This document shows positions 45,113 to 63,999 of a DNA stretch of 64,000 bases, one piece after another (positions within the stretch are counted from its first letter, which is position 1; each line of letters begins with the position of its first letter). The notes under the pieces are model-generated. The model saw nothing but the letters and a program-made list of their open reading frames with translations, was not told the origin of the DNA and did no database searches. The stretch covers positions 32,001-96,000 of IMG/VR virus record IMGVR_UViG_3300013014_000020, one strand, 5' to 3'. Made by a program: the position numbers and the translations under genes. The stretch is from a virus.

Positions 45113-45739
45113 TTATTTTTGAAAAAATTTCTCAATTCTTTTACTTAATCTAACTCTTGGGTCATTTATTGTTCTACCAACATCTTCATATTTTAACACA
45201 AACCCAAAACTTAAAAAAACTCTTCTTGAATTGAATTCATTTGTCCAATGTTTATACAGAGAAGCTTCAAACCCATATAAATCAGATTCTTGTATTTTAA
45301 CCGACTCTTTATCCACATAAAAATCATAATCTTCTGACAACACACTGATGTTACATTTATAATTAACATACCCATCTATTGATGCGTCATAGTGAGGATT
45401 TATTTTTCCTCCTTTATTCATATCAACGGATTGTAAAAAAACATTATCTTTTGGAAAATTAAACTCTTCTGTTATCCTATCTATTATTTTATAAATAAAA
45501 TTAGGTAATGGTTCTTTTGAAACATCTGAAATTGATTGAAATTTTGTAATGTAACTAGTTAAAGGAGTGTTAGAAATATCAAACATATAAGATTTACCAT
45601 TTAATGATTTGGATAACTCTGTAAGGTGATGATTACTATCATTCCCGGTATGGTTAATAGATTCAATCCAATTAACTATCTGATTTGACTCATCATTTGT
45701 GATGAATTTTTTTATTATTTTATAATTTTCAGATTCCAT
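45113..45739 (-). CDS. 2OG-Fe(II) oxygenase (hydroxylase-like)
   Basis: GGKINPHYDAS (HxD), YKHW (distal His), RVFLSFG (2OG-binding Arg). Confidence 0.8.
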   Translation of the reverse strand: MESENYKIIKKFITNDESNQIVNWIESINHTGNDSNHHLTELSKSLNGKSYMFDISNTPLTSYITKFQSISDVSKEPLPNFIYKIIDRITEEFNFPKDNVFLQSVDMNKGGKINPHYDASIDGYVNYKCNISVLSEDYDFYVDKESVKIQESDLYGFEASLYKHWTNEFNSRRVFLSFGFVLKYEDVGRTINDPRVRLSKRIEKFFQK

Positions 45740-45963
45740 TTATTAAGAAATTCTTTTGGACCAATTTCTAATTCCATAATAGATAAGTTTTTCTTAGCGT
45801 AAATAGAGTTCATTTTTTCCTCAGATCCTGCCATGGTACAAAACCAATGTGTTGCAGGTTCTTCACCTGTTGATGAACAAGGTATTTTCATAACATTTTT
45901 ATTTATCCAACCTTCTCTTACTTGTTCTACCTTATCGTTTTCAGTTAAAATATTTATTCTCAT
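45715..45963 (-). CDS. Hypothetical protein
   Basis: 82-aa ORF overlapping the oxygenase start. Confidence 0.6.
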   Translation of the reverse strand: MRINILTENDKVEQVREGWINKNVMKIPCSSTGEEPATHWFCTMAGSEEKMNSIYAKKNLSIMELEIGPKEFLNKWNLKIIK

Positions 45964-45989
45964 ATTTTTTATTTTTTAGTCATTTTAAT

Positions 45990-47273
45990 TTATGCTGGTG
46001 TTGTTGTTGTTCTTTCCCCATACGCAACTATACCCGATACTGTATTTACAATTGTAAACTTATAAATATACAATGTATTTCTAGCACCATTAGTCCATGA
46101 TTTAGTCCATATTTGAGGAACTCCATCTATTTTAAACCCTGTTATTTTCCAAGTATTTCCCGATATATCAGCATTTGACGCAATTATCTTTATAGATGTC
46201 GAACAACCATCAGGTAAATCAAAATTTGTTAAATTAACTATCCAATCCGATGTTGCATCAACCCCAAAATGAACAAATGTTGTTCCAATAGAACAATCAT
46301 AATTTACAGTACCAGATGGTGATGGTAAATTTGTTATCGCTCCTGTTATGTTTGGAGAATATATTGATCCTGTTATAGTTAATCTATCTGCATTTATAAA
46401 TTGAAAATAATCAATAGAGTTAGTATTAGTCCCCGTAAGAGATGAATTTGGTTTATCATAGATGGTATTAATAATTGAATAAATACCCGCAACGCTAATG
46501 GGTGCAACATTATTACCTGCCTGAACAAGAACTTGACTATTAAGCAAAGTTAAAGTTGTTGCGGAATTAGTAATAGTTATAGCATTTCCACCTAAAGCTG
46601 TTACAATACAATCAACTATAGCTAGATTACCCGCGCTAGCGGAAGGTGTAACAACACTATTACATCCTTTTACAATGACTTGTGCTGAAGCATTACTTAC
46701 GGATATACCAACATTTTTATTTCCGTTAATGATTATAGTACCCGAACCTGAAATTTGAATACCGGATATACATTGCATTTCCGAGTTAATAATCTCTACA
46801 TAACCACTAGAAGATTTAGTAACTTGAGTATCAACGGTACAGTTGCTTATATAAGCTTGAGCCGTTCCACTAATAACAAGGTTAGTCATCTTCAAACCCG
46901 AAATACGGGAGCCAGAACCTAATGTGCCGATAGTTAAAGTTCCATATAATAAAGTATTAGCACCTGTAAGTTCAGATGTTTGAATTGTAGTATTACCATC
47001 TGCTACAGTAATGTTTTCATTATAACCGCCTGGATGAACAATAATTGTTTTTCTATTACCAGCAACCAAAGTTAATGCCTTAGTAATAGTTGCAACGGGA
47101 TTAAGTAAACTGCCATCGCCTGTAGTGTCGTTTCCATCTATTTGACTTACGTGTATCTCATATTGAAAATTTGACGAAACATTATAATATGTTGTTGCCG
47201 ATATAGTATTCGTGGTTAAATCACCATTTATGGTTTGTCCCGATACGTTATTTACAATATATTTTGTTGCCAT
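45990..47273 (-). CDS. Fibre or spike-like protein with a pectin-lyase-like beta-helix
   Basis: IHVSQIDGNDTTGDGSLLNPVATITKAL..IIVHPGGYNE (beta-helix cap); N-terminus shared with 43196..45091. Confidence 0.65.
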   Translation of the reverse strand: MATKYIVNNVSGQTINGDLTTNTISATTYYNVSSNFQYEIHVSQIDGNDTTGDGSLLNPVATITKALTLVAGNRKTIIVHPGGYNENITVADGNTTIQTSELTGANTLLYGTLTIGTLGSGSRISGLKMTNLVISGTAQAYISNCTVDTQVTKSSSGYVEIINSEMQCISGIQISGSGTIIINGNKNVGISVSNASAQVIVKGCNSVVTPSASAGNLAIVDCIVTALGGNAITITNSATTLTLLNSQVLVQAGNNVAPISVAGIYSIINTIYDKPNSSLTGTNTNSIDYFQFINADRLTITGSIYSPNITGAITNLPSPSGTVNYDCSIGTTFVHFGVDATSDWIVNLTNFDLPDGCSTSIKIIASNADISGNTWKITGFKIDGVPQIWTKSWTNGARNTLYIYKFTIVNTVSGIVAYGERTTTTPA

Positions 47274-47291
47274 TTTATTTTTTTAATTTAT

Positions 47292-48368
47292 TTAGTCAAT
47301 TGGTAATCCGGACATATACCCAACAGTAATATCACTCCACCCTATACCAAATTCATGCTTCATAACTTTATCTACAACGACATATGATTCAAATTGTGTT
47401 GTACCGGTACTAACATCAGAATTAATAAAAATACCACTTAAAAAATATACATCATTTGTAGTGTTTCCGGTTACTTGACTTGGTAAATTTGCAATAATAT
47501 AATCATAAGCAGAATCCCTGATAGTTTCCGTGGCAAATATCATTTGTTTATTATAAACCTCTTCAGTAGTTCCTGTGAATCCACTTAAAGTAGATTTAAA
47601 TGGCCATAAAATATCGGTCAATTTCCAAAAAGAATAATTTTCATTATTAAAAGGTGCGTTATTTTGATTTGGAGGTGAACTTAGTTGATTTACAACTTGG
47701 TCAATTGCTCCCGCAACGGCACCACAGGTATTATCGGTTAAACTATTTGCCTTACCCCTTCTTAACATTCTACCTGAACGACCGTCTTCAGTAACACCAA
47801 TGTGTGGCGTACTTGTTACAAACAAGGTTCCACCAAGAGTTGTTGCTACGTGACTTGCAAATGCCCCAAATCCAACACTACCAACAAATGGATAACCTGC
47901 CAATCCACCGGACATAAACGGCCCTAAAAACGAATTAATACTGGTTGGCCATCCACCGATATTTCCGGGTAAATATGCTGCATCAACGTCATCAGAACAA
48001 ATACCTTCAGCTAAAACAATATCAGTTGATGGTATTCCTTCATTTGTAATATATTCTGTTGTGTATGTTCCCCATACTTCAGATAATACCGCTCCTGAGA
48101 ATGGTTGGTATCCTCCGTCAACAGTAACAGTTCTTACTGTTTGAGTATATGCACTCTGACCTTCTAACGGTGCTGGTACAATTATTTCGTATGTTCTATC
48201 ATATAATGGAACGTCTAATTCGTATGTTCCATAAGGATAACCCGAAATATTATTAAATGGTATTGTTTGAGTACCTAAGTCAACGGTTCCACCAGTTGTG
48301 GGTAAAAAAGTAACATTTGTCGTAAGTCCCGATAAATTTGTACTTGTTATTCTAATTCCTTGTATCAT
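47292..48368 (-). CDS. LCIB/LCIC-like (theta-class) carbonic anhydrase domain fused to an N-terminal surface-protein module
   Basis: GICSDDVD, FMSGGLAGYPFVGSVGFGAFASHV, PHIGVTEDGRSGRMLRRG, TCGAVAGA and SGIFIN match the LCIB_C_CA pattern with Cys/His/Cys Zn ligands. Confidence 0.85.
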   Translation of the reverse strand: MIQGIRITSTNLSGLTTNVTFLPTTGGTVDLGTQTIPFNNISGYPYGTYELDVPLYDRTYEIIVPAPLEGQSAYTQTVRTVTVDGGYQPFSGAVLSEVWGTYTTEYITNEGIPSTDIVLAEGICSDDVDAAYLPGNIGGWPTSINSFLGPFMSGGLAGYPFVGSVGFGAFASHVATTLGGTLFVTSTPHIGVTEDGRSGRMLRRGKANSLTDNTCGAVAGAIDQVVNQLSSPPNQNNAPFNNENYSFWKLTDILWPFKSTLSGFTGTTEEVYNKQMIFATETIRDSAYDYIIANLPSQVTGNTTNDVYFLSGIFINSDVSTGTTQFESYVVVDKVMKHEFGIGWSDITVGYMSGLPID

Positions 48369-48430
48369 TTTTTTTGTTTTTTTTGTTTTTTTTGTTTATT
48401 TTTTATAATAAATATTGTGTTATTTATTTT

Positions 48431-51004
48431 TTATATTACTAACCCATAATTTAAATCGTCTTCAGGTATATCTAAAACAACAATATCGTTAATATAAACT
48501 ATTAATCCATAATTCAAATCATTTTCTGGTATGTCTAATGCGTTTAATCCACCTAAACAAGGAGCTTCGGTTAATGTTTCTATTGTTAGAACATCTGATT
48601 CATCATAATATGATAATCTATCATCTCCATTTTTATTTTTGAATACATTAACTGTTGTGATATCATATAACATACCTGTACTTAAACAAGTACCGACAAT
48701 TTCGGCATTAACAATATTCCATTGAAATGAATCACCTATTTCATTACTACGGAAATTATCAGGTATAGTGTTATTATAGAAATATTCACCAATAGTATTA
48801 TTGTAAAAATTATTCCCAATTCTATTTCCTTGAGAAGTATTTATTCCAAAACCAAATCCATCTTGAATTTCATTACTACTAAAATAAGACCCTATTGTGT
48901 TATATGTGAATGAACCATAAAAATCATTAAATGTAAAATGGTTACCAATTATATTTGAATATGTGCCGCCACTAAGATTGTTGCTCAAAAAATTATAACC
49001 TACATTATTAAATTTAAAATCATCAAATATTTCATTAGCTTTAAAATCTGTTTTAACTTGGTTATCTGTAAAATCACCTTGAATATCATTTCCTTTAAAG
49101 TTATTCATAATTTGGTTACTTTCAAAAGTAAGACCTAAATTATCATCTTCACCAATTGTGTTTGTGTTAAAACCATTTAATATTGAATTTTTTCTAAAAT
49201 CAAAATAAATGGTATTAGTGTTAAAATCATTTAAAATGTTGTTATATTGAAAATTAAGTTTAATTATATTACCTTGAAATTCGTTTCCAATTCTATTACC
49301 CCTAAAATCATATTCCCCGATAATTGAACTGTCTCCAATTGTATTACCATTAAAAACGTGTTCAATAGTATTTTCATAGAACTCTGAATATATGGTGTTA
49401 TTATTATATCCGTTTCCAATTAAATTACGATTAAATTGTGAATAACTTTGATTACCATTATACCCATTACCAATATCATTATTATAGAAGTCATCATAAA
49501 TTTTATTATTATTGAACTGATTTCCTATTTCATTATTTTGAAAATCATCAGAAGTATAAACGTTATCCCTAAAATCATTTCCAATATTGTTTCTATAAAA
49601 AGACCCTCCTAGTAAAGTGTTACTATAAAAATCACTACCAATTCTATTATTATTAAAATTTGCGGTGATATAGTTGTTGTTAAAGTTTTCACCAATTATA
49701 TTACCGTCAAAATCATCGTTTGTTGAGTTGTTATAAAAACTATCACCAATTTGATTATTATCACAATCATCATTAAATGTGTTATTATAAGAACCGTTAC
49801 CGATGGTGTTGTTTCTAAATGAACCACCTAATAATACATTATTTGCAAGTAAAAAATTTCCAGTACCAAATTCTAAATGTAGATTAGAATAGTTACCAAT
49901 ATAATTATTAACCGCTCCACTATTATCAATAACATCTCCAAATGTTGTGTATTCAAAAACTTGGTCTTGTCTTACATTGGGTTGGTAATAACTCATTATA
50001 CCATCATCATTTCCATAATAATAAATTGAGTCAGTGGTTACACTTATTGTTACACCTGATATAATTGCTAAAGAATTGCTTACAACAGATAAAACTTCAA
50101 AAAATGAAGGATTTAAATTTTGTACTGAAACAATGTCTCCTGTTGAGAAATTTGAGGTAAATGTTGTACCCGTGTTACCATATAACACGGCAGTTGTTCC
50201 TGTTAAACCACTTATCCCAACAAGACCACTTAATGGTTGATTTTCGTAATATGAATATCCACGATATCTTTTAAATAAAATACTTCTGTTGTCATAATCA
50301 GTTCTATTATTAAAGTTATCAATTCTTTCAGTGATTCTACCTTTTGCAGGACTGCCGGTTACTTCAGTTGTATTCCAAGTTATGTCGTATGTTATTTTGT
50401 CTTGAGGGTATAATGTAGAATATACGGTAGGTGAAAACCCTGTTGTAGATATCGCCAATAATAAAATTGGTTCTGTTGTTCCTGTTTTATAGTTACCCGT
50501 TGTAATTGGATTTTTTACATTATTGTAGTTTGGTTGGTCATAACAAGTTTGATAATCAGTCATCAAGTAATATCTACCAGGTATTAATATACCATTACCA
50601 GCATCGGCAACAAGTTGTGAATATGTTCCACCAGTTACAAATACATCTGTTGATCCTGTGTATAAACCGCTAATTGATAAAGAACCATTTTGTCTATTAA
50701 GTGTTATTGTACCATTAGAATATGTCCCGCCAGTCACATAAAAATCTGTACCACCAGTATATAAACCGCTAATTGATAAAGAACCATTTTGTCTATTAAG
50801 TGTTATTGTACCATTAGAGTATGTACCACCAGTTACAAAGTTGTCTGATACACCACTTAATACATAATTTTTAAATTGTACTATTGGTGTTTGTTTTGTT
50901 TCACCAGTTATACTACCCAAGTAATTTACAATTGGGATAATGTCGTTTGTTGTATAACCTGAATTACCTAAGTATGGTAACTGTGAAATTTTCTTATCTG
51001 CCAT
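48431..51004 (-). CDS. Asn-rich beta-helix fibre or spike protein
   Basis: KKISQLP N-terminus, 33-aa VTGGTYSNGTITLNRQNG repeats and dozens of NxIGNxFxxN repeats. Confidence 0.75.
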   Translation of the reverse strand: MADKKISQLPYLGNSGYTTNDIIPIVNYLGSITGETKQTPIVQFKNYVLSGVSDNFVTGGTYSNGTITLNRQNGSLSISGLYTGGTDFYVTGGTYSNGTITLNRQNGSLSISGLYTGSTDVFVTGGTYSQLVADAGNGILIPGRYYLMTDYQTCYDQPNYNNVKNPITTGNYKTGTTEPILLLAISTTGFSPTVYSTLYPQDKITYDITWNTTEVTGSPAKGRITERIDNFNNRTDYDNRSILFKRYRGYSYYENQPLSGLVGISGLTGTTAVLYGNTGTTFTSNFSTGDIVSVQNLNPSFFEVLSVVSNSLAIISGVTISVTTDSIYYYGNDDGIMSYYQPNVRQDQVFEYTTFGDVIDNSGAVNNYIGNYSNLHLEFGTGNFLLANNVLLGGSFRNNTIGNGSYNNTFNDDCDNNQIGDSFYNNSTNDDFDGNIIGENFNNNYITANFNNNRIGSDFYSNTLLGGSFYRNNIGNDFRDNVYTSDDFQNNEIGNQFNNNKIYDDFYNNDIGNGYNGNQSYSQFNRNLIGNGYNNNTIYSEFYENTIEHVFNGNTIGDSSIIGEYDFRGNRIGNEFQGNIIKLNFQYNNILNDFNTNTIYFDFRKNSILNGFNTNTIGEDDNLGLTFESNQIMNNFKGNDIQGDFTDNQVKTDFKANEIFDDFKFNNVGYNFLSNNLSGGTYSNIIGNHFTFNDFYGSFTYNTIGSYFSSNEIQDGFGFGINTSQGNRIGNNFYNNTIGEYFYNNTIPDNFRSNEIGDSFQWNIVNAEIVGTCLSTGMLYDITTVNVFKNKNGDDRLSYYDESDVLTIETLTEAPCLGGLNALDIPENDLNYGLIVYINDIVVLDIPEDDLNYGLVI
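50661..50818. repeat. Direct repeat of about 59 nt, 99-nt period
   Basis: TATAAACCGCTAATTGATAAAGAACCATTTTGTCTATTAAGTGTTATTGTACCATTAGA at 50661 and 50760. Confidence 0.85.
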
Positions 51005-51050
51005 TTTTTTTATATTATAAATAGTTTTATTTTTTTTAAATTCATTACTT

Positions 51051-51596
51051 TTAGTAAATTATTTTATCATTATTTTCTGTGTTTAATACATCTCCATTTT
51101 CTGTTAATACATTGAATGTTTCAGGAATTGGTACGGGTTGTACACATATTGTTGTTGTGGTTCCTATAATAACTGGACTTGTATTACAACAAGGAAATTC
51201 ACTAACATAACAATTATTATATTCTAACGAATCACCAATAAAACTTTCTTGTATATTAATATATAGTTTGTCTCTTAAAGGTAATATTAAAACACCATCA
51301 TCATTTCTAAATAAAAATTGTCCTTCATATCTACCAACTTTTCTTGTGTCTGTATTTGAAAACTGATAATAAACATAATATTCTGGTTCGGCATTTGGGT
51401 CCAACATTTCTTTTGCGACAAATCCTGCTGGTCTTGTGATAATCTTTGGTATTCCAGTATCAATATCTACCATTGAAAAGAATATCGCAGATTCTTCAAT
51501 AAGACTTGTCATTTTATTAAAATCACTTCTGCCATCTTTAACCACGGCCATCTTTAATAAAGGAAGAGTTGCGTTTTTCTTAATAAAGAATTCCAT
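51051..51596 (-). CDS. Structural protein, BppU N-terminal-like
   Basis: FFIKKNATLPLL..YYQFSNTDT..GRYEGQF; C-terminal LTENGDVLNTE motif. Confidence 0.5.
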   Translation of the reverse strand: MEFFIKKNATLPLLKMAVVKDGRSDFNKMTSLIEESAIFFSMVDIDTGIPKIITRPAGFVAKEMLDPNAEPEYYVYYQFSNTDTRKVGRYEGQFLFRNDDGVLILPLRDKLYINIQESFIGDSLEYNNCYVSEFPCCNTSPVIIGTTTTICVQPVPIPETFNVLTENGDVLNTENNDKIIY

Positions 51597-51623
51597 TTAT
51601 AGTTTTTACTATAAATATACCAA

Positions 51624-53294
51624 TCAACATTCTTTTCTTAATTCTGCACTATAAAAATCAAAACGGTTGTGCTCAGTTGGTGTGATAAGTAACAGTCCAG
51701 GTTTTAGATTACTTTTGACTGTTTCTTGGAAATTATAAGACATAAGTGTTTGTTCATATGGAAAATCAAATTTATTTTTTAAATAACATTTGTAGTTTCC
51801 TTCTTTTGACATAAGGATTGGCCAATTAGAAAGATAAATTTGTCCGCTAGCATATGGTACGCCTTCATATGATTTTATATTATTAAAAAGTAAACAAGGA
51901 GCCTCTGGATCATAACCTTGCACTGGTAAGTTAGGTTTTTCTGGCCAGTGGTTTTGTCTAAACTCTTGTGGTACATTATACCAGGACCATTGTGTTTGAT
52001 GTGAACCAAAAAATTCTGTAAAGTTCATTTTAAGAAAATCAAATTCTTCTGTCTTTAATATGTTTAGAGTTTTTGAAAAAAGGTTTTCTACATATCGGTT
52101 AAACCCATTTTTACAAGTACCAGAATTTTTATTCACAAATAGCATATCATCCTCAAAGAAAAAATAATAACCCAAATCTTCTTCTTTGTTAAAATGTTCG
52201 GCAATAAATTGTCTTCCACCGGTTATCCCAATATTATCTTTTTTAATGTGGTCAAAACCATATCTTAAACAAAGTTCATTATATTTTGGTGTTGTATTTA
52301 AATCCGTTGAATTATTTAATAAAAATTTCTTCGTTCCGTTAATAAAATTTGGGTCATAAAATAACATACTTTTTATTAGCGACTCAAACTGTGATGGTGA
52401 GTTAAAACTTATAACATATAAGCCAACACCATTAGAATTTATGTTTGATTTTATAATTTTGTTTTTTTTATTTTTAATTACAAATGTATTATTTTTTACA
52501 TCTTCAAAAAATTTATACATCAAACCATTTGATTCTATTTCACAATAATCAATCATTGATGGATAAAGATAAGTCATAATTGTAAAAATACTTTCTTCGG
52601 TTCCCATCAAATTTTTATTTAATGTGTCTATTAATAATTGGTAGTATAAAACATTTAAGTCAGCAATTTTTTGTTTTGTTCCACCAAAAAACCCACCTCT
52701 TGAGACAAACTCTGTTTTTGTTTTTGCGTAGTCACACATTTTTTTATAATCAAATCCGTGCACTTCGTTTTCCGCTTCATAAGGAAAGACAACAAACATA
52801 AATTTATCAAATAAACTTTCTATTTTATCTAATACATTATCACGAGTAAAATACCCCAAATTAACCGTGTTAGTTAATCCGGCGTCTATCCAGTAAAGTT
52901 TTTCAGAATTAAAAGGATCCAAAATAGATGCGTCGTGTAGTAAAAACATTTTGGACATTACAAGTGGATTGTAATATTCTAATCTTGCTTGTGTTGATTC
53001 TTTTAACCAACCAGAAAGATTATACCAATTTTCATTTGTCCTTATTTTTTGAATTTTATCAAAGTATTCGTTATTTCTAAACCAAGATAAATTCCTATTA
53101 ATAAATTTTGTATTGTTTGGGTTTCTATACTTGAATACAAATTCCTCTAATTGTTTATCACCAAAAATAATTAAGTTACAATCTATTTGTAATAACTCTT
53201 TAAATTTTTCTAAATAATAATCAAAAGATCTATTCCACCCTTCATTTAGGTTACCCCTACCAATATCCCATAAACCTGTAACTAATGTTATCAT
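51624..53294 (-). CDS. Two-domain glycosyltransferase: HtrL/YibB-like + GT-A-like
   Basis: ITLVTGLWDIGR, SKMFLL, YWIDAG, GGFFGG and GTEESI (HtrL-like), then GLYVISFN...FFFEDDM (DxD-type). Confidence 0.75.
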   Translation of the reverse strand: MITLVTGLWDIGRGNLNEGWNRSFDYYLEKFKELLQIDCNLIIFGDKQLEEFVFKYRNPNNTKFINRNLSWFRNNEYFDKIQKIRTNENWYNLSGWLKESTQARLEYYNPLVMSKMFLLHDASILDPFNSEKLYWIDAGLTNTVNLGYFTRDNVLDKIESLFDKFMFVVFPYEAENEVHGFDYKKMCDYAKTKTEFVSRGGFFGGTKQKIADLNVLYYQLLIDTLNKNLMGTEESIFTIMTYLYPSMIDYCEIESNGLMYKFFEDVKNNTFVIKNKKNKIIKSNINSNGVGLYVISFNSPSQFESLIKSMLFYDPNFINGTKKFLLNNSTDLNTTPKYNELCLRYGFDHIKKDNIGITGGRQFIAEHFNKEEDLGYYFFFEDDMLFVNKNSGTCKNGFNRYVENLFSKTLNILKTEEFDFLKMNFTEFFGSHQTQWSWYNVPQEFRQNHWPEKPNLPVQGYDPEAPCLLFNNIKSYEGVPYASGQIYLSNWPILMSKEGNYKCYLKNKFDFPYEQTLMSYNFQETVKSNLKPGLLLITPTEHNRFDFYSAELRKEC

Positions 53295-54535: not shown

Positions 54536-54551
54536 AATTAGTTAAAAATAA

Positions 54552-54770
54552 CTAACACTGATAAAAATTAAATATTTCACAATTGTTTGAATCAATAAGT
54601 TTTACAAGTAACGAACCCACGTTATTTAATGGTTGTGGGACATCAAAGATATATGTGGAAATATACGTACCTCCAGAAACTAAATAACAATAAGTGTTTG
54701 TAATATCACAAACATACACATCGTAAGGGGGGTTTCCTGTAACACCGGATATTGTTATTTGGTTTGTCAT
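54552..54770 (-). CDS. Small Cys-containing putative virion protein
   Basis: ITISGVTGNPPYDVYVCD..C..VKLIDSNNCE. Confidence 0.6.
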   Translation of the reverse strand: MTNQITISGVTGNPPYDVYVCDITNTYCYLVSGGTYISTYIFDVPQPLNNVGSLLVKLIDSNNCEIFNFYQC

Positions 54771-54789
54771 ATTTTATATTTCTAACGAC

Positions 54790-55173: not shown

Positions 55174-55367
55174 TTTGATTCTTTAATAAAATTTATATAC
55201 CAAACAATAGAGGCGATAAGTCCTCCATAACAAGTAATAAAAACCATAATTTTTAAATATAGGTTATCCAAATAACCATCCATTAACCAAGATGGGTATA
55301 AAACTGACCCAACTAAAAATAAAATGATTAATAACCAAGAAGAAACGTGTAATTTAAAATTTTTCAT
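55170..55367 (-). CDS. Small two-TM membrane protein
   Basis: Two hydrophobic helices; TATTTAT upstream. Confidence 0.6.
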   Translation of the reverse strand: MKNFKLHVSSWLLIILFLVGSVLYPSWLMDGYLDNLYLKIMVFITCYGGLIASIVWYINFIKESK

Positions 55368-55431
55368 AACCTTTTATTTAATAAATATCACATTAGTTAA
55401 TAACCAACAAATTTAAAAAGTATTTATTATT

Positions 55432-55980
55432 ATGGATAATAAATTAAAAAATCTAAAATTAGATTTGTTGTTAAAAGAATTAAAACTTTTGGATTTGGAA
55501 AGGGAGTATGTTGATGAGTTTACAAAACATTACAGACCAATTTTTATGCAGGAATTAACTAAAAACGGTTACAAGGCACAAGTAGTGTCTGGAGAAACTT
55601 TAAATACATCAATTAAAAAAGAAAATAAAATTAATGCTGATGAGAATGAATTAAAAACTATAAAAAATATTTTTAGAAAAATTGCTAAGGTATCTCATCC
55701 AGACAAAACTAAAAATATTTATAAAAATAAATTATATGATGAAGCTCAAATTGCTTACGATAAAAATAATTTATTAGTCCTTTATAAAGTAGCAAAAAAA
55801 CTAAATATTGATATTGAGTTAAATGTTAGTAATTTACTACTTATAGAAAAAATAATTAGTGATGAAAAAAAGGAATTGTCGTCCGTTGAAACATCCTTTT
55901 TATGGATATGGGCTAACACAGAATCACAAGAAAAAAAAGACGAATTAATAAACCAATTTATAAAAAAACACGGGGAATAG
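55432..55980 (+). CDS. J-domain (DnaJ-like) co-chaperone
   Basis: LKTIKNIFRKIAKVSHPDK (HPD motif)...AQIAY. Confidence 0.8.
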   Translation: MDNKLKNLKLDLLLKELKLLDLEREYVDEFTKHYRPIFMQELTKNGYKAQVVSGETLNTSIKKENKINADENELKTIKNIFRKIAKVSHPDKTKNIYKNKLYDEAQIAYDKNNLLVLYKVAKKLNIDIELNVSNLLLIEKIISDEKKELSSVETSFLWIWANTESQEKKDELINQFIKKHGE

Positions 55981-55982
55981 TT

Positions 55983-57167: not shown

Positions 57168-57186
57168 AACAATTTAATATAAATGT

Positions 57187-57219
57187 AAAAAGGGACTCTT
57201 TCGAGTCCCTTTCTTTTTT
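57187..57219. terminator. Bidirectional rho-independent terminator
   Basis: AAAA-AGGGACTC-TTTC-GAGTCCCT-TTCTTTTTT between convergent genes. Confidence 0.85.
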
Positions 57220-57236
57220 GAAAGTTAATCTAACGA

Positions 57237-59699
57237 TTAATACATACCGTAAACAGCAACTTTATCACCTGTTCTAGGAGCAGAAATAAATGTTACTGAA
57301 GTTGTTGTAATTGTATAATCACCAGCATCTTGTAATAAACCATTCAAGTAAACTGCTTGTGAACCTGTTCTAAGTTCGTTATTGAATGTGAATTCAGTAA
57401 CAACACCATTAGCAGTTTCAACTACACCAGCATTTCTAAAATAGATATTAGCAAAATCATCAGCTAATGACAATTCAGCGCTTTCCGCTCTAACTACCTC
57501 AGTTGACAAGTTAGCAACGATTTCAGTAAATGAATCAATTTCAGTTACGTCGATGTTAGATATCAAGTAAGAAACTTGAGTTGACAATTCTGTAGCAATT
57601 GAATCTTCAGCGTTTTCAGCTCTTACTATCTCAGAAGATAATGCAGTTTCCAATGATCTGTCAATAAATACTCTGGCAGACGTTTCAGTAAATAAATCAT
57701 CCTCTAAACTTGCATCAGCATCTTGACGGTTGCTAATTTCTCTATCTATAGCAAATTCTCTAGTTGAAACTTCAGTAGATAAATCAGCTATGATTGAATA
57801 ATCCGCAACAACTCTTCTACTAACTTGAGTTGATAATTCAGTAGATAAACTCGTATCAGCATCTTGACGTGCGTTAGCTTCAGAAGATAAATCAGACTCT
57901 AAACTTGCATCAGCATATGCACGTGCGTCAGCTTCATTATTGATTTCTAAACCAATTGATGTAACCGCAGATAACAATGCGTTATCGTTCTCTAAATCAA
58001 TTCCATTAACGAACTCAACGATTTCAGCAAATTGATCTAAATCAACTTCAGAACCATCAAGAATAGCATCAATACGTCCTTGTTCTACAGATACTGCAGA
58101 CGCTAAAGATTGGTCAGCTGCTAAACGAATAGACGCTTCATTATTGATTGCAGTTCCTCTGTTAGAAACTTCAGTAGATAAATTGTTAGTCAATACTAAC
58201 TCAGCACTCATTGCTCTTGACTCTTCAGCATTAACGTCAGCGATTCTGTTAGAAACTTCAGTAGATAAATTGTTAGTCAATACTAACTCCGCACTCATTG
58301 CACGAGACTCTTCAGTATCAACATCAGCGATTCTGTTAGAAACTTCAGTAGACAAATCACCTCTTAATACCGCTTCAGCACTAGTTGCACGTGATTCCTC
58401 AGCATCAACATCAGCTATTCTGTTAGAGATTTCGGTAGACAAGTTAGCAGTAATAGACGCATCAGCAGAAACTCTATCAGATTCTTCGTTTCCTATAGAG
58501 GTTTCCAATGAAGCATCAGCAGCAGCACGAGCATTCTCTTCAGTATTCACACGTTCTGACAATGAAGTATCAGCAGAATTCATAGTTGAAGTCAATTCGG
58601 AAACTTCAGCAATTCTTTCTGAAATTTCAGTAGATAATGCAGCATCAACAGATGAATTAGCTATTGATAAGTCAGTTGAAATTTTACCTTCTAAACTTGT
58701 GTCAGCATTTTCTCTGTTTAACGTTTCAGTTGATAAATCAGACGCTAATGAATTATCACCAGCAATTCTTGCAGATACTTCAGTAGATACAGCAACTTCT
58801 CTGTTAGCAACTTCAGTTGATAAGTTAGCAGCAACAGAAGCGTCACCAGAAATACGAGCAACTTCTTCTAAAGATACTGCAGCAGTTCTATCAACAACTT
58901 CAGTTGATAAGTCAGATGCCAAAGATTGGTCAGCAGCAAAACGAGTTGATGCTTCAGCAGATGTTGCGATAGATGCGTTAGTTGCAAGTTCAGTAATTGC
59001 ACCATCTAATTCACCATCCATTGATTGGTAAGCAGCAACGATTTCAGTTAATGAATCTAAAGCCGCTGGATCTGTGTTTGAAATAACATAGTTAACTTTA
59101 GCATTCAATGAAGTTTCAGCAGATTCTGCTCTTGCGATTTCAGAAGATAAATCAGTTTCTAATGAAAGATCAGCCGCGTTCATTGCATTTTCTAAACTCT
59201 CATCACCAACAACTCTTAAAGACGCTTCAGCATCAATGTTGTTTTGTAATGATTGTTCAGCTACCATTGCACGAGATTCTTCAGCATCAACATCAGCTTC
59301 TCTGTTAGCAACTTCAGTAGATAATGCAGTTGCAATTGAATTATCACCAGCAATTCTGTTAGACACTTCAGTAGATACTGCAGCTTCACGGTTTGTTACT
59401 TCTGTAGATAATTTAGTCGCGATTGAGTTATCACCAGCGATTCTGTTAGAAACTTCAGTAGATACTGCTGCTTCACGATTTGCAACTTCTGTAGATAAGT
59501 TAGAAGTGATTGATTGGTCACCTAAAATACGATTAGATACTTCAGTTGACATTTCTAATGATACGTTAGTATCAATTGATGCAACTGTAGATGTCAAACC
59601 TGAGACATCCGTCATCACTAAACCTGTTGGTGTGGTGATGGTTGCGTTTGTAAGGATTAAGTCCGACTGTCTGTCTAAGACTATTCTAGTATTCGCCAT
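57237..59699 (-). CDS. Long acidic coiled-coil fibre protein with a C-terminal beta domain
   Basis: Repeats STEVSNRIAxD / EESRAxSAE (11/22-residue period), LDSLTEI nodes, C-terminal VYLNGLLQ..DY. Confidence 0.8.
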   Translation of the reverse strand: MANTRIVLDRQSDLILTNATITTPTGLVMTDVSGLTSTVASIDTNVSLEMSTEVSNRILGDQSITSNLSTEVANREAAVSTEVSNRIAGDNSIATKLSTEVTNREAAVSTEVSNRIAGDNSIATALSTEVANREADVDAEESRAMVAEQSLQNNIDAEASLRVVGDESLENAMNAADLSLETDLSSEIARAESAETSLNAKVNYVISNTDPAALDSLTEIVAAYQSMDGELDGAITELATNASIATSAEASTRFAADQSLASDLSTEVVDRTAAVSLEEVARISGDASVAANLSTEVANREVAVSTEVSARIAGDNSLASDLSTETLNRENADTSLEGKISTDLSIANSSVDAALSTEISERIAEVSELTSTMNSADTSLSERVNTEENARAAADASLETSIGNEESDRVSADASITANLSTEISNRIADVDAEESRATSAEAVLRGDLSTEVSNRIADVDTEESRAMSAELVLTNNLSTEVSNRIADVNAEESRAMSAELVLTNNLSTEVSNRGTAINNEASIRLAADQSLASAVSVEQGRIDAILDGSEVDLDQFAEIVEFVNGIDLENDNALLSAVTSIGLEINNEADARAYADASLESDLSSEANARQDADTSLSTELSTQVSRRVVADYSIIADLSTEVSTREFAIDREISNRQDADASLEDDLFTETSARVFIDRSLETALSSEIVRAENAEDSIATELSTQVSYLISNIDVTEIDSFTEIVANLSTEVVRAESAELSLADDFANIYFRNAGVVETANGVVTEFTFNNELRTGSQAVYLNGLLQDAGDYTITTTSVTFISAPRTGDKVAVYGMY

Positions 59700-59930
59700 A
59701 AAATGGGTTTTAAAAAATTATTTATAAAAATGTGTTCTTTTACACCAAAAAACCTTAACACTAGGTTTTAAGTTTGTTGATAAATAGTATACCAGAATAC
59801 CTCTTTAAGAAAAGTATTCTTTAATATAAATTTTTTTATGTGGATAAATATTAGATATTAATAATTGTTAGGAAGAACCCTAAACTTGTTTTCATATAAA
59901 TATATTAATAATTCTAAAAAGACTAAAAAA

Positions 59931-60167
59931 TTATAAATTATATAATAAATTTTTTAAATTCTTAATTGAATTGGTATATAAAAGTGGATCACAAGACCCT
60001 CTCTCATTTAAATAATCGTTAACATTTAACATTAAATCCTCTGTTTTATCAAAAACAAAGACCACTCGGTTTTTGCTTTTTTCAACCCTCATTTTAAAAC
60101 TTTTTAACCTTAAAAAGGCAGATAAATATAAATCACTTGTTTTGTATTCTAATTCTTGCTCCATCAT
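59931..60167 (-). CDS. DUF5659-like small protein
   Basis: YKTSDLYLSAFL..RVVFVF pattern. Confidence 0.6.
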   Translation of the reverse strand: MMEQELEYKTSDLYLSAFLRLKSFKMRVEKSKNRVVFVFDKTEDLMLNVNDYLNERGSCDPLLYTNSIKNLKNLLYNL

Positions 60168-60229
60168 TTTTTATTTACTATTATAAATATGTTAATATTT
60201 TAGGTTGTGCCAATTTTATAAAAATTTTT

Positions 60230-61015
60230 TTAATAAAATCTATATGAACAAGTAATTTTACTCCAAGAAGTTGGGGCAAGATTAAATGTTATAGTTTTTC
60301 CGTTTATGGTGTAATCATTATTTTCACCAGGATCTTGTAGAAGACCATTTAAATATACGTGATCGCTTCCAGGTTTTGGTAGTGTGCTAAGCTCAAAAAC
60401 TTTATTTATTCCGTCAATACCCCCAATCGGATTTTCGTGGTCAATAAAGTTTATTTCACTATAAGTTCTGTAAGTACATAATAATTTACTACCTATTTTT
60501 GGTGGTTCATTAAATGTTATTGTTTTTCCAACTATTAAATAATCTAATTGTTCACCTTTGTCTTGTAAAAGACCATTATAAAATAAATGTTCTGAATTTA
60601 TTTCAGGTGTGAATCTTAATGAAAAAACTTTATTTACACTATCTATGTTTCCAGATATTAATTCTCTATCAATAAACGTGGACGCATTAACTCCCGGTAT
60701 TAATAAATTGTCACGTAAATTATTTAAAACCTCTAATTGTGTTGATGATAAAAAAAAGATTTCTTCCCAATCCAAAATATCAAAAGACCAAAAATTATTT
60801 TTGAGTTTAAAGTACTTTGATCCCCCATTTACACCAACAATCATTCCAGGCCTTCTTCTATCATAAGAAATAAGGTCTAAATCAGATTCTTGGTCAACAT
60901 TTCTTAACCCATCTACTCCATACAAAGGATCGGTAACAGCATAGGTATCTAAAGTATCCATTGGCGAAATGAACCCCATAATACCAACACCACCAATCTT
61001 ACTAAAATCGGACAT
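60230..61015 (-). CDS. Structural protein with two tandem NGLLQ beta modules
   Basis: GLRNV..RRRPGMIVGV N-domain, then two copies of D(S/G)xNKVFxL..P..H(L/V)xxNGLLQDxG..DY. Confidence 0.7.
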   Translation of the reverse strand: MSDFSKIGGVGIMGFISPMDTLDTYAVTDPLYGVDGLRNVDQESDLDLISYDRRRPGMIVGVNGGSKYFKLKNNFWSFDILDWEEIFFLSSTQLEVLNNLRDNLLIPGVNASTFIDRELISGNIDSVNKVFSLRFTPEINSEHLFYNGLLQDKGEQLDYLIVGKTITFNEPPKIGSKLLCTYRTYSEINFIDHENPIGGIDGINKVFELSTLPKPGSDHVYLNGLLQDPGENNDYTINGKTITFNLAPTSWSKITCSYRFY

Positions 61016-61041
61016 CTACATCAAAAATATACATATATTAT

Positions 61042-62778
61042 TTATTCACATAACCATATATCTACCTCAGCATTTGTTGAGACATATGTTCTATATACTG
61101 AATAAATAGTTAAATATCCAAAATTGTCAATTAAAGAAACGTCTGGTTTAGAAATAATTGGAATAACAAATCCGTTACATCCTGAATTACTATTTCTAAA
61201 TATTGATGGTTGTGGCATTGATTTAGGTATTAATATATAGATATAACCAATTCCATTTGAAACTGTTAAATTAAGATCTATTGATGTTGTTATATCTAAT
61301 TTTATTAATGTTGATACGTCATTAGTTGTTAAATTTGAGTTTTGTATTTTTCCATAATAAATCACAGGAGCTGGAGGAGGACTTGATGTTGGTGTTGGTG
61401 TGTTTGTTGGTGTAGGAGTATTTGTTGGTGTATTTGTTGGTGTATTTGTTGGTGTATTTGTTGGTGTTGTCGTAGGAGTTGGGGTATTAGTTGGGGTTGT
61501 CGTAGGAGTTGTTGTTGGAGTATTTGTTGGTGTATTTGTTGGTGTTGTCGTAGGAGTTGGGGTATTAGTTGGGGTTGTCGTAGGAGTTGTCGTAGGAGTT
61601 GTTGTTGGAGTAGGTGTATTTGTAGATGTTATTGTAGGTGTTGGAGTATTAGTTGTTGTTGGAGTTGGGGTATTAGTTGGGGTTGTTGTTGGAGTAGGTG
61701 TATTTGTAGATGTTATCGTAGGCGTTATTGTAGGCGTTATTGTAGGTGTTGGAGTATTAGTTGGGGTTGTTGTTGGTGTGTTTGTCGGAGTAGGGGTATT
61801 AGTTGTTGTAGGTGTAGGCGTAGAAGTATTTGTTGGAGTAGGTGTAGGGGTATCTGTAGAAGTTACCGTTGGTGTGCCTGTAGGCGTAGGAGTATTTGTA
61901 GGAGTAGGTGTAGGCGGGATATTTGAAATTATATTAACTGCATACTCAACATCCAAATCCACATTTAACACGCGAGTATTTTCTAAACAATTTTGGTCTG
62001 ATAACATATTAAAGTCATAATCTAAAATGACTTCTGTAAATCCACTTACCGATCCTAAAGGTATTGTAATTTGCTTGGTAACAACCATTCTTTCACCATC
62101 TAAAGAAACTAATACACAATCATACTCAACAGTACTATCCACATCAAGAGGTATATTATATCTAACAAATGACTGTAATATAACCGAACCTGGAACAATA
62201 TATTGATCAATTAAAACTTGTAAAACTGTTGGGGATGGTGATGCAGTCGGCGTTTGTGTTGGGTTACATTCCGGAGTCTTTGTAGGTGTAGGAGTATTGG
62301 TTGGTGTTTGTGTCGGTGTCGGAGTCTGGGTAGGAGTATTAGACGGTGTAAAGTTTGGAGGCAAAGGCGTTACACACAAATTCCAAGTAGGAGTTGGTGT
62401 TGGCGTAGGTGTCGCTGTTGTTGTTGCTGTCGGAGTGTTTGTTGGTGTAGGAGTCTGTGTAGGTGTTGGCGTATTAGTAGGAGTCTGTGTTGGAGTTCTT
62501 GTAGGTGTTGGAGTTGGTGTTCTTGTAGGTGTATTTGTCGGTGTTGGTGTAGGAGTTGGTCTTGGTACGTTTAAAAAGTTTGTACAACTACCACCATCTG
62601 TTGATATTGTGTATGTTCCGTAAATTTCTTGTTGTGGTGTTAATAAATCTGGCTGGAAAGTATATGGAAGTATAACAAAACCAATATTTATAGTGATATT
62701 ACTATTATCTGGTTTGAATAGTATTTGGGCGCTTTCACCGCTAAAATTAACACTTTGTATTGTAATTATCTGACTCAT
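61042..62778 (-). CDS. Mucin-like Thr/Pro-repeat surface protein
   Basis: Two long (TP)n/(TNTP)n tracts separating three small globular domains. Confidence 0.85.
61370..61920. repeat. Low-complexity Thr-Pro coding repeat (second tract at about 62230-62560)
   Basis: Degenerate GGTGT/GGAGT/GTT repeats on the plus strand. Confidence 0.9.
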
Positions 62779-62809
62779 TGTATATTTTTATAAATACAAT
62801 CAAACAGAC

Positions 62810-63013
62810 TTATTTTTTAATTTTAATCATTTTATACCAAGCTCTTTCGTGTATAAAATAAATAAAAGGTTTAATTAATAGTTCACCCAAACCAATTAAA
62901 GATGAAACCTCTATTGATGCACCAAGTAATAACGCGGTTCCAATTGTTGTTAATGTTGCAAAAAATCTATAAGTCAAAGTTTTTAATATGTGTCTTTTTA
63001 AATCAACCTGCAT
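62810..63013 (-). CDS. DUF2061-family small membrane protein
   Basis: RHILKTLTYR..YFIHERAW signature. Confidence 0.85.
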   Translation of the reverse strand: MQVDLKRHILKTLTYRFFATLTTIGTALLLGASIEVSSLIGLGELLIKPFIYFIHERAWYKMIKIKK

Positions 63014-63024
63014 ATTATATTAAA

Positions 63025-63843
63025 TCAAAAATAACCCAATTGATCATAGAACCATTGATGTTTTTGTTTTATCCAGTTACATGCTGGCACCCCAAGGACT
63101 TCTTTGTAATCTAATTTTAATGGTTCTATTTTTGATTTAATTGTGTGATCACCATAAATTCCATATACAGAATCATCTTCTTGTGTTATCTGTTCTACAT
63201 TATTAAAATCGTGTTCGTAGTATGGTAGTTCTAAATAATTGTAGATTCTTTCCATTTCCTTTTTTGGGTTTGATGTAAAATCCTCAAACTTAACAAACAA
63301 AACTTTTGTGTTAATACCTTCTTTAAACATTTGGTACAACCTCTCAATAGCAAGACCAACTGGTTGTGATTGAGCCCAAACATCAATTCTTTTTTCTGTT
63401 GTTGTTCCTTGCATTTGCGCGTGGTTTACAACACCAGAATCCATATGTTGACTTTTTCTAAAATTCTTTTCCATTGATGCAAAAATTCCACGTAAATCCC
63501 TTACCATACAAATAATTTTTGGTTCTGGATAAAAAGAATTTAAAAATCCGTAATGAATACCCCAACCTCTACTTTTATCTAAAACGTATGGTTTGTCTGT
63601 TACACCATTAAAAAAACCGGTAACACCTTGATTACAAAAGTTTAAAAACCCTTGTTTCATCAATTCCGAATCTTGTGCTTTAAATTCTGGTGATGTAGTG
63701 TAATTTGCTCTTGCGGCATATACTAATTCTAAAACACCAGATGTTGGTGTTACATAAAAATCTGGATTTTGACCCATTACATTTTGAAGCAATGTTGACC
63801 CTGCTCTTGGTAATGAGCTTTGAAAAAATATTTTTTGTACCAT
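63025..63843 (-). CDS. PAPS-dependent sulfotransferase
   Basis: 5'-PSB loop SLPRAGSTLL, DKSRGW, 3'-PB motif MVRDLRGIFAS and VKFEDF. Confidence 0.88.
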   Translation of the reverse strand: MVQKIFFQSSLPRAGSTLLQNVMGQNPDFYVTPTSGVLELVYAARANYTTSPEFKAQDSELMKQGFLNFCNQGVTGFFNGVTDKPYVLDKSRGWGIHYGFLNSFYPEPKIICMVRDLRGIFASMEKNFRKSQHMDSGVVNHAQMQGTTTEKRIDVWAQSQPVGLAIERLYQMFKEGINTKVLFVKFEDFTSNPKKEMERIYNYLELPYYEHDFNNVEQITQEDDSVYGIYGDHTIKSKIEPLKLDYKEVLGVPACNWIKQKHQWFYDQLGYF

Positions 63844-63846
63844 AAA

Positions 63847-63999
63847 TTAATTTTTTAGTGATTCGATTATTTCGTTTACATTAAAGATGTTTGTATCAAA
63901 TAAAGGACATTCGTGTATTGTACCATTAAAGCTGTAATCAAATAAATAGCTATCTGGTAACTTAACGGTTGTTGGTAATTCAGCGATAATGTTTGTGTG
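63847..63999 (-). CDS. C-terminal fragment of an upstream gene, possibly glycosyltransferase-related
   Basis: Open frame HTNIIAELPTTVKLPDSYLFDYSFNGTIHECPLFDTNIFNVNEIIESLKN* ends 3 nt before the sulfotransferase ATG. Confidence 0.5.
   Translation of the reverse strand, partial: HTNIIAELPTTVKLPDSYLFDYSFNGTIHECPLFDTNIFNVNEIIESLKN

Follow-up and report, generated by a model that had tools for sequence, protein, structure and literature searches.

The stretch of DNA analysed here, the window, is 64,000 nucleotides long and covers bases 32001-96000 of the 115,294-bp IMG/VR virus record IMGVR_UViG_3300013014_000020. To judge from its gene content, it holds a real multi-enzyme glycan-building locus within co-oriented fibre-like genes, and this work will focus on what that locus glycosylates. 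The genes fall into two modules (Table 1). In the first, a GT60-family glycosyltransferase is followed by a two-domain glycosyltransferase with an HtrL_YibB-type N-terminal half (the HtrL fusion) and then by the small protein p181. In the second, a sulfotransferase is followed by a small predicted membrane protein and by a mucin-like protein with long Pro-Thr (PT) tracts, the PT protein. The original prediction for this DNA, made from the letters and their open reading frames (ORFs), was that the phage hydroxylates, glycosylates and sulfates its own PT-rich virion proteins to build a mucin-like coat. Every ORF it listed was found again, in place and in strand. We will argue that its central idea is sound in part: the glycan locus, the co-occurrence of GT60 with PT repeats and the candidate acceptors encoded in cis all hold up, while the hydroxylase-first route and the role given to a DUF2827 protein do not.

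Table 1. Features of the locus and its surroundings. Positions are in the window unless they carry the prefix L005, L006 or G000; aa, amino acids.
Feature	Position	Strand	Basis or remark
C5-cytosine DNA methyltransferase	7778-8800	-	PF00145 2e-60
Giant ORF, 2326 aa	11786-18766	-	
Giant ORF, 1737 aa	19081-24294	-	
Tail sheath, 1218 aa	28945-32601	-	sheath profiles match last ~300 aa only
Beta-roll fibre-like protein, 631 aa	43196-45091	-	weak LbR_Ice_bind, 12 x[TIV]SGG-type repeats
Divergent 2-oxoglutarate (2OG)-Fe(II) oxygenase-like protein, 208 aa, accessory	45113-45739	-	family alignment/profile
Probable tail or virion protein	45990-47273		PHROG tail or virion match
LCIB/LCIC-type (theta-class) carbonic-anhydrase-like protein	47292-48368	-	PF18599 3.9e-27
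Fibre-region protein of unassigned family, 857 aa	48431-51004	-	position among fibre genes
p181, 181 aa: BppU_N-like immunoglobulin (Ig) domain (aa 1-~135) and short Thr-run tail	51051-51596	-	AlphaFold2 (AF2), Foldseek, BFVD
Two-domain glycosyltransferase (HtrL fusion), 556 aa	51624-53294	-	PF09612 3e-21, residues 2-249
GT60-family glycosyltransferase, 414 aa	53291-54535	-	PF11397 7e-69, phrog_24687 5e-164
Weak DnaJ-like ORF	55432-55980	+	paired with DUF2827 gene
DUF2827 protein, 394 aa	55983-57167	+	Pfam 5.2e-99
Fibre-like virion protein, 261 aa, two internal repeats	60230-61015	-	PHROG virion structural 4e-10, tail fiber 3.6e-8
Mucin-like modular PT protein, 578 aa	61042-62778	-	translation, tract statistics
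PT tract 2 (aa 284-473)	61360-61929	-	PT protein
PT tract 1 (aa 69-178)	62245-62574	-	PT protein
DUF2061 small predicted membrane protein, 67 aa	62810-63013	-	PF09834 8.9e-14
3'-phosphoadenosine-5'-phosphosulfate (PAPS)-type sulfotransferase, 272 aa	63025-63843	-	Sulfotransfer_3 4e-20, Sulfotransfer_1 4e-11
GT9-like gene, first	L005:847-1731	-	adjoins sulfotransferase, beyond window
TibC-like GT9-like gene, 304 aa	L005:1751-2665 (G000 96751-97665; 751 nt past window end)	-	PDB 4rap
GT8	L005:2658-3401	-	3.8e-25
Fibre-region protein, 943 aa	L005:10724-13555	-	C-terminal papain-like Peptidase_C1 segment (5.9e-5)
Fibre-like proteins with T5-T7 runs and SprB repeats	L006:5327-6403, 7145-9850, 9869-11947, 15002-17200	+, -, -, -	
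Protein between SprB-repeat fibres, 326 aa	L006:11960-12940	-	possible additional glycosyltransferase

From its PHROG and Pfam matches the source phage is a jumbo myovirus. Its gene set includes a tail sheath of 1218 aa, a family-B DNA polymerase, a DnaB-like helicase, a ribonucleotide reductase, a UvsX-like recombinase, a single-stranded DNA-binding protein and a C5-cytosine methyltransferase (C5-MT). The window has a GC content of ~31%. CheckV estimates the 115,294-bp record to be 39% complete, and genome sizes among relatives are up to 256-322 kb. An IMG/VR search with the back-translated GT60 gave 131 relatives, from which 80 loci were taken with 10-kb flanks; all counts out of 80 below come from BLASTP of all window ORFs against all locus ORFs. 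Four relatives, G001-G004, are 85-100% complete.

The GT60 enzyme matches PF11397 with 233 bits against a cut-off of 21, aligning over profile positions 1-44 and 97-351 of 352, and the SYRD, DSH and GEE motifs can be read in its translation as 'IASYRD', 'LDSHMRF' and 'HGEEIS'. With the PHROG match, this bears out both the family and the motifs named in the original prediction. A PDB sequence search gave no meaningful match. The metal-binding role of the GT-A DxH motif is taken from related GT-A enzymes, and the members of GT60 are polypeptide or hydroxyproline (Hyp) N-acetylglucosamine (GlcNAc) transferases (PMC6939170). We propose the phage enzyme as a candidate priming polypeptide GlcNAc-transferase. 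It is present in 80/80 of the loci and is 45-50% identical to its counterparts in the phages XacN1, Xoo-sp13, CM1 and RAS14. The mucin UDP-GlcNAc:polypeptide alpha-GlcNAc-transferase of Trypanosoma cruzi belongs to the same family and takes Thr-rich acceptors, which may be compared with the T5-T8 and (TP)n sequences of the phages. The T. cruzi enzyme, however, is a type-II membrane protein of the Golgi, whereas the phage GT60 has no hydrophobic N-terminal segment, is soluble by sequence and is predicted to be cytoplasmic.

A soluble glycosyltransferase might also be aimed at a host protein, with GT60 and its partners seizing or disabling some host function. There is a precedent, since bacteria use cytoplasmic protein glycosyltransferases as effectors (PMC7142665). 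We consider this very unlikely here. A hypervariable cassette for long glycans would be unexpected if the purpose were inactivation by a single sugar, the genes lie within the late/structural region, and proteins with PT and poly-Thr tracts are encoded in cis.

The start of the HtrL fusion overlaps the stop of GT60 by 4 nt, and its HtrL_YibB match reaches 76.7 bits (cut-off 24.1). It is not the YibB equivalog: it scores 72 bits against TIGR02192, where the cut-off is 264.9, and it has an extra C-terminal domain of ~270 aa. For this C-terminal half there is an Atlas match of 0.97 to clusters with PF00535 in 25% of their members, as well as an 'FFFEDDM' motif, and we treat a GT2-like GT-A domain as a lead only. 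The predicted fusion of an HtrL-like and a GT-A domain therefore stands for its N-terminal half and for the overlap, and is a lead for the rest. A PDB sequence search with the fusion gave no meaningful match. It is found in 78/80 loci, and ORF330 of XacN1 is a full-length orthologue with 41% identity.

In the gene maps of the loci the frame is fixed: GT60 comes first, 0-9 extra ORFs follow it, and the HtrL fusion and p181 close the series in that order. The extra ORFs belong to ~40 families. Pfam can name GT25, a CmcI/rhamnosyl O-methyltransferase, a PLOD-type glycosyltransferase and a GT10 fucosyltransferase among them, and the majority of the families get no name from NCBIfam or Pfam. XacN1 and Xoo-sp13 have the same frame, in their case holding a carbamoyltransferase and two ORFs, and the GT60/HtrL frame is common to the ~31%-GC phages and the phages of Xanthomonadaceae. 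By gene content this is a hypervariable glycan-tailoring cassette bracketed by GT60 and the HtrL fusion. Among the GT60 loci, the most distant ones (L076-L087, 60-66% identity) are arranged differently, with the HtrL fusion directly upstream of GT60 and not downstream, and with neither p181 nor the DNA polymerase near GT60. The same enzyme pair sits there in a different genomic frame.

The protein p181 occurs in 66/80 loci, always immediately after the HtrL fusion. Its N-terminal domain of ~135 aa is conserved and is modelled by AF2 as an Ig-like sandwich (pLDDT 82). The top PDB match from Foldseek is a baseplate chain of phage NF5, 9m8o_P (E 3.6e-4), and BFVD gives 124 matches at E<=1e-3; those among them that carry a name are BppU-domain, minor tail and tail fibre proteins. 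Pfam gives no match. In relatives the protein is either the bare domain, 119-155 aa in total, or is extended to a total of up to 1231 aa by T5-T8 runs, a beta-rich domain, long PT tracts or adhesin-like repeats. The poly-Thr runs are placed directly after the conserved domain. We put p181 forward, on the basis of the modelled fold, as a candidate glycan acceptor anchored in the tail or baseplate. Its homologues, including those in L058, L049 and L042, have the domain fused to very different C-termini, which look like a swappable receptor-binding or adhesin module; in L060 (16668-19325, + strand) a p181-type domain is followed by a PT tract and then by a long BspA/DUF285-like leucine-rich repeat array.

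A second candidate acceptor, judged by its composition, is the PT protein. It consists of an N-module of ~68 aa, tract 1, a beta-rich middle domain, tract 2 and a C-terminal domain of ~100 aa. Its two tracts come to 300 residues, 145 of them Thr, which agrees with the more than 250 residues of Thr-Pro repeats reported before. The Thr and Pro codons are mixed, so the tracts are not a DNA microsatellite. Downstream of the sulfotransferase module, relatives conserve the N-module and PT tract. The middle and C-terminal domains of the PT protein occur fused to the N-domain of p181 in L023 and L069, which makes the two proteins reshuffled members of a single modular family. PT or poly-Thr proteins lie directly downstream of both enzyme modules. 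No signal peptide is visible in GT60, p181 or the PT protein, so modification would require cytoplasmic enzymes.

This placement can be put in numbers. After dereplication at 97% GT60 identity, which left 50 groups, a PT tract of at least 30 aa is present in the ORF that follows the HtrL fusion in 15 of 47 dereplicated loci, as against 31 of 724 other ORFs of at least 120 aa (odds ratio 10.5, nominal p 8e-9; the loci are not phylogenetically independent). Whole records were also searched with an 18-nt pattern encoding TPTPTP, with the reversed pattern as control. All 8 GT60-positive records have 4-34 hits, and the control gives 0-1. There are 7 hits in the window's record, 26, 34, 28 and 4 in G001-G004, and 29, 26 and 19 in the isolates XacN1, Xoo-sp13 and CM1. 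The seven GT60-negative phages Atu_ph07, SCTP-2, phiKZ, G, RSL1, RaK2 and P-SSM2 (2.5 Mb in total) have 0, 0, 0, 0, 0, 0 and 1 hit. The co-occurrence of GT60 and PT repeats across relatives, without which the original prediction would have failed, is there.

One could accept that virion proteins are glycosylated and still argue that the PT tracts are mere flexible linkers, the true acceptors being, for instance, the beta-roll fibres, the Ig domain of p181 or, as in mycobacteriophages, the termini of capsid or tail-tube proteins. Linkers of this kind are frequent in modular extracellular proteins, GT60 persists where p181 is bare or where the PT tracts are distant, and the TibC-like enzyme of module 2 suggests Ser in beta-helix turns as a target, xSGG repeats being abundant in the adjacent fibres. 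We think that this is unlikely, though it is a serious alternative. Characterised GT60 enzymes act on Thr-rich mucin peptides or on Hyp in an extended segment, and the T. cruzi acceptor peptides for GT60 contain Thr runs. The PT tracts follow GT60 across phages of very different GC and are near-absent from the seven other large phages, and the position of the poly-Thr runs next to the p181 domain also speaks against an idle linker.

In module 2 the sulfotransferase is the last gene, and the module runs on upstream past the end of the window with a GT9-like gene, a second GT9-like gene that resembles TibC, and a GT8 gene. Before GT8 come the genes for three large, fibre-like products with repeats of beta-roll or YadA-like type (1093, 1258 and 943 aa). 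Relatives keep the succession GT8, TibC-like, GT9-like, sulfotransferase, small ORFs, PT protein and large fibre. The sulfotransferase and DUF2061 calls of the original prediction are both above the Pfam thresholds; for Sulfotransfer_3 the match is 73.5 bits (cut-off 27), and a 'PRAGST' loop like the 5'-phosphosulfate-binding loop and an 'RD' motif can be read in the translation. That the enzyme sulfates the glycan is less clear. Its sole PDB sequence matches are to TPST1 (E 8e-5), over residues 5-124 in the N-terminal half, and its best NCBIfam match is the carbohydrate sulfotransferase NoeE (1.7e-6, full length, far below the cut-off), so it is weakly like both a tyrosine and a carbohydrate enzyme. 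The family stands, and the target may be a glycan or tyrosine. The gene is within 10 kb of GT60 in 11/80 loci.

The TibC-like gene has 4rap and 4rb4 as its sole PDB matches, with an E value of 2.4e-18. The TibC features compared were the signature GLxSGLSWLAWA and the four-Cys metal site; in the phage protein the signature GLSSGLSWLAWA and the four Cys of TibC align. The first GT9-like gene gave no meaningful match in a PDB sequence search. Enzymes of the TibC/AAH (BAHT) type O-heptosylate Ser residues in the passenger domains of autotransporters (PMC8498110). The phage gene lies beside xSGG beta-roll proteins, which mirrors the glycosyltransferase-adhesin gene pairs of TibC/AAH with AIDA-I and TibA. 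The systems differ in that the phage protein is ~100 aa shorter and leaves the N-half of TibC unmatched, and in that the putative acceptors are phage fibres and not autotransporters. One of these fibres, the 631-aa beta-roll protein in the window, is paralogous to the 1093-aa protein beyond it; both have 12-14 [TIV]xSGG-type turns, and we regard the 631-aa protein as a candidate acceptor for the TibC-like enzyme. In five relatives (L012, L038, L036, L072 and L073) the TibC-like domain is found within ORFs of 911-1497 aa, which are possibly multi-enzyme fusions.

It is at this point that remodelling of the host envelope has to be considered. GT8, GT9-like, GT25, GT10 and HtrL_YibB enzymes are typical of loci for the core of lipopolysaccharide (LPS) or lipooligosaccharide (LOS), and htrL/yibB lies within the waa region of E. 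coli. Enzymes of this sort act in sequence at the cytoplasmic face, where a flippase encoded by the phage would be unneeded. During infection they could extend or alter the LPS/LOS core or another surface glycan, perhaps so that superinfection is blocked or released progeny do not stick to the dying cell; their proximity to fibre genes would then be coincidental. We find this improbable. GT60 has no known lipid or polysaccharide acceptor, and all characterised GT60 enzymes are peptide-specific. The GT9-like gene resembles the protein heptosyltransferase TibC and not WaaC or WaaF. Between the 31%-GC freshwater phages and the Xanthomonas and Stenotrophomonas jumbo phages, GT60 and the HtrL fusion retain 41-50% identity as a pair; hosts and LPS cores presumably differ between these groups, so an acceptor encoded by the phage fits better. 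The enzyme genes are also co-oriented and interleaved with structural genes, and there are glycoproteins on XacN1 virions.

The original prediction had a 2OG-Fe(II) oxygenase act first, as in the Skp1 pathway. The enzyme itself is probable, though remote. Taken alone, the 208-aa protein has no Pfam, PHROG or PDB match; an Atlas search gave a lead towards its oxygenase identity. Single-sequence and shallow-profile searches of the PDB also gave nothing, and matches to prolyl-4-hydroxylases (P4Hs) came from a deeper alignment only. The exhaustive search of its family gave 63 representatives at 50% clustering, and there are 1955 relatives in a metagenome protein set. H116, D118 and H164 are invariant across 22 diverse members and R173 is present in at least 90%. 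The six best PDB matches of the family profile are all P4Hs (E 0.0055-0.086), with 2jig, 3gze and 2jij at the top (E ~0.006), and one match is to AlkBH8 (E 0.34). Among 22 distant members, Asp_Arg_Hydrox is matched by 6/22 (best 7.5e-5) and 2OG-FeII_Oxy_3 by 2/22. The AF2 model was not used, its mean pLDDT being 45.5 from a shallow alignment of 20 sequences that are 83-90% identical. The oxygenase call thus survives through the HxD...H...R residues and the remote P4H profile, and lacks a Pfam match of its own; the protein is probably a divergent protein-hydroxylase-like enzyme closest to P4Hs.

Its place before GT60 does not survive. The gene is 8 kb from GT60, it is near GT60 in 6/80 loci, and a search of G001-G004 and XacN1 with the family profile found nothing, while GT60, the HtrL fusion and PT tracts are retained in all of these genomes. 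The Skp1-type order of hydroxylation and then GlcNAc is therefore not the general mechanism, and is at most an add-on in some strains. The Skp1 pathway of Dictyostelium and Toxoplasma (PhyA, the GT60 enzyme Gnt1, extension glycosyltransferases) resembles the phage locus in its cytoplasmic GT60, P4H-like oxygenase and soluble extension glycosyltransferases. It differs in that the phage oxygenase is unlinked to GT60 in most relatives and that a repetitive tract, not a single Pro, is the proposed acceptor, and the logic of the pathway is probably not conserved in the phage.

An oxygenase near glycosyltransferases also raises the idea that the sugars go onto hydroxymethylated bases of the genome as a defence against restriction. 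Phage GT-A/GT-B enzymes glycosylate 5-hydroxymethylcytosine (5hmC) with multi-sugar glycans, and phage DNA glycosyltransferases cluster with C5-MT/5mYOX or ThyS genes (bioRxiv 10.1101/2023.12.21.572611). The window does have both a C5-MT and a 2OG oxygenase-like gene, and the DNA of this phage is probably modified to 5-methylcytosine at some sites. We regard DNA glycosylation as extremely improbable all the same. The cluster layout, with a glycosyltransferase next to C5-MT/5mYOX or ThyS, was not found in this phage: the C5-MT belongs to the replication module, 45 kb away from GT60 and unlinked to the island, and ThyA homologues are 120-165 kb from GT60 in the complete relatives. The oxygenase profile matches P4Hs and not TET/JBP, and the oxygenase is missing from the complete relatives; a search of five records with Tet_JBP (PF12851) gave nothing, this search having no positive control. 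The same preprint names no GT60, HtrL, DUF2827, BAHT, sulfotransferase, fucosyltransferase or carbamoyltransferase.

The DUF2827 protein had been counted as part of the island. Its family is right and its membership is not, since it is on the opposite strand, paired with a weak DnaJ-like ORF, and has a homologue near GT60 in 1/80 loci. Neither a PDB sequence search nor NCBIfam gave a match. It is a sporadic accessory insert.

The nearest characterised relatives of four of these enzymes (GT60 GlcNAc-transferases, TibC, prolyl-4-hydroxylases and TPST1) act on proteins, and in the window and the 80 loci the glycosyltransferase genes are found among structural genes with candidate acceptors in cis, the layout of phage virion glycosylation as a kind. 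The closest known systems are those of XacN1, Xoo-sp13, CM1 and RAS14, which have an orthologous GT60 and HtrL/GT fusion downstream of the DNA polymerase, with enzymes between the two, a GT9-like gene nearby and genomes rich in TPTPTP tracts. XacN1 differs in the carbamoyltransferase and two ORFs of its cassette, in having no p181 homologue and no sulfotransferase seen in a 25-kb neighbourhood, and in host and GC. Its authors found at least two Schiff-stained glycoprotein bands in purified virions, which they credit to two annotated glycosyltransferases, ORF328 and ORF334, noting only 'two glycosyltransferases' with no family or acceptors (PMC5852040). By our comparison ORF334 is the GT60 orthologue. 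Since the orthologous cluster of XacN1 goes with Schiff-positive virions, we believe that glycosylation of the phage's own fibre proteins is the best reading of the locus.

In outline, this would be a cytoplasmic protein-glycosylation system of a lytic jumbo myovirus with its own tail, baseplate or fibre proteins as targets. In module 1 the soluble GT60 would put a HexNAc on Thr, possibly also Ser, of poly-Thr and Pro-Thr tracts, and the two-domain HtrL/GT-A enzyme would elongate and decorate the glycan. In relatives, 0-9 cassette enzymes (GT25, GT10, a PLOD-type glycosyltransferase, a CmcI-type O-methyltransferase, the carbamoyltransferase of XacN1) would tailor it further. The acceptor would be the BppU_N-like tail protein just downstream, which carries its tracts on a variable C-terminus. 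In module 2, whose GT8, TibC-like, GT9-like and sulfotransferase genes are set between xSGG beta-roll fibres and the PT protein, the TibC-like enzyme would probably add heptose to Ser of those beta-roll fibres, and glycans would be elongated by GT8 and the GT9-like enzyme. The sulfotransferase may cap glycans on the PT protein or may sulfate tyrosines. The P4H-like oxygenase would be optional, hydroxylating Pro in the same tracts, with GT60 working independently of it. The pay-off could be a hydrated, protease-resistant and variable glycan brush on the structures that recognise the host.

We put the probability that phage proteins are the acceptors and that the PT and poly-Thr tracts are the GT60 sites at roughly one half. 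That the acceptors are phage proteins of any kind seems to us rather probable. Several points weigh against the fuller claim. In this phage both the glycosylation of proteins and the virion location of the PT proteins are predicted, and the Schiff-stained bands of XacN1 are not assigned to proteins (PMC5852040). The isolated-phage collection, including XacN1-type isolates, has no homologue of p181, and many p181 homologues of 119-155 aa are without a PT tract in loci that still keep GT60. The complete relatives have many of their PT tracts 70-90 kb from the cluster, in G004 only there, and the tracts may be merely linkers of modular fibres. The GT60-positive genomes belong to one or two lineages, so the count of 8 is not one of independent cases. 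The GT8, GT9, GT25 and HtrL families are best known from LPS/LOS core synthesis, and the TibC match covers TibC residues 209-385, its C-terminal half only (304 vs 406 aa).

That the enzymes lie among fibre genes, as first predicted, is supported at the level of prediction only, by PHROG matches, beta-roll repeats and the BppU_N-like fold. The 857-aa protein has no Pfam or PHROG match and has homologues at the same position in 29/80 loci. A segment homologous to the 261-aa virion protein is found in relatives within proteins of 635-2503 aa just after the PT protein. Also among the fibre genes is the carbonic-anhydrase-like LCIB protein, with homologues in 5/80 loci. By eye only, a pattern I.I.S.N.SG ... 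P[FY] ... YGTY can be seen both in its first ~60 aa and in the N-module of the PT protein; BLAST does not support a similarity between the two N-termini, its alignment being out of register with an E value of 0.06. The papain-like segment that ends the 943-aa protein has a parallel in XacN1, where ORF382 is a C1 peptidase too and is beside a giant protein with PT tracts. The tail sheath is unusually long, and two giant ORFs lie before it in the window.

At 20-27 kb before the window are further fibre-like proteins with several T5-T7 runs each and with SprB repeats (Pfam 1e-5 to 5e-8). Since SprB is known as a gliding adhesin of Flavobacterium, the repeats and the 31% GC together hint at a Bacteroidota host. 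A SERGT1/HPAT-like identity for the 326-aa protein between these fibres was not borne out, its sole match being a sub-threshold one to Nucleotid_trans (PF03407, E 0.019), and a PDB sequence search with it gave no meaningful match.

It is important to realize that phage-encoded virion glycosylation is already known, shown in mycobacteriophages and giant viruses and suggested for XacN1. Giant viruses have capsid glycans and a viral prolyl-4-hydroxylase in the chlorovirus PBCV-1, and fibril glycans in mimivirus. They share with the phage a host-independent, virus-encoded multi-enzyme synthesis of glycans on virion proteins, a P4H-like enzyme and Pro-rich repeats, and differ in being viruses of eukaryotes with other glycosyltransferase families and N-linked or fibril-associated glycans. 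Mycobacteriophage glycosyltransferases have been proposed or shown to O-glycosylate structural proteins (Freeman et al. 2023, as cited in PMC12619734). The acceptors there are the C-termini of capsid and tail-tube proteins, the enzymes are of other families and there are no mucin-like tracts, and that case is shown by experiment where ours is predicted. Novelty here would lie in the set of enzymes, the mucin-like acceptors, the layout in two modules and the hypervariable cassette. The literature we searched has no paper that connects phages with GT60 or BAHT enzymes.

So far, only a few phages have been shown to glycosylate their own particles, and they do so with simple systems. If our reading is right, GT60, a BAHT-like heptosyltransferase, the HtrL/GT-A fusion and a sulfotransferase would be a new enzyme set for phage protein glycosylation, with mucin-like acceptors within phage structural proteins and cassette-type diversification of glycans in a group of phages found in great abundance in freshwater metagenomes. 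A soluble GT60 would also be within reach of bacterial systems for mucin-type glyco-engineering. The cultured relatives XacN1, Xoo-sp13, CM1 and RAS14 make the hypothesis directly testable. In its widest form, which we offer tentatively, a widespread clade of jumbo phages, with abundant freshwater lineages and cultured phages of Xanthomonadaceae among them, would build a mucin-like O-glycan brush on tail, baseplate and fibre proteins, maybe sulfated and heptosylated, with GT60 priming Thr runs and the cassette making the glycan differ between strains. Such a system would be the viral equivalent of O-antigen or mucin diversity, and glycan variation on the side of the phage would join the arms race between phage and host.

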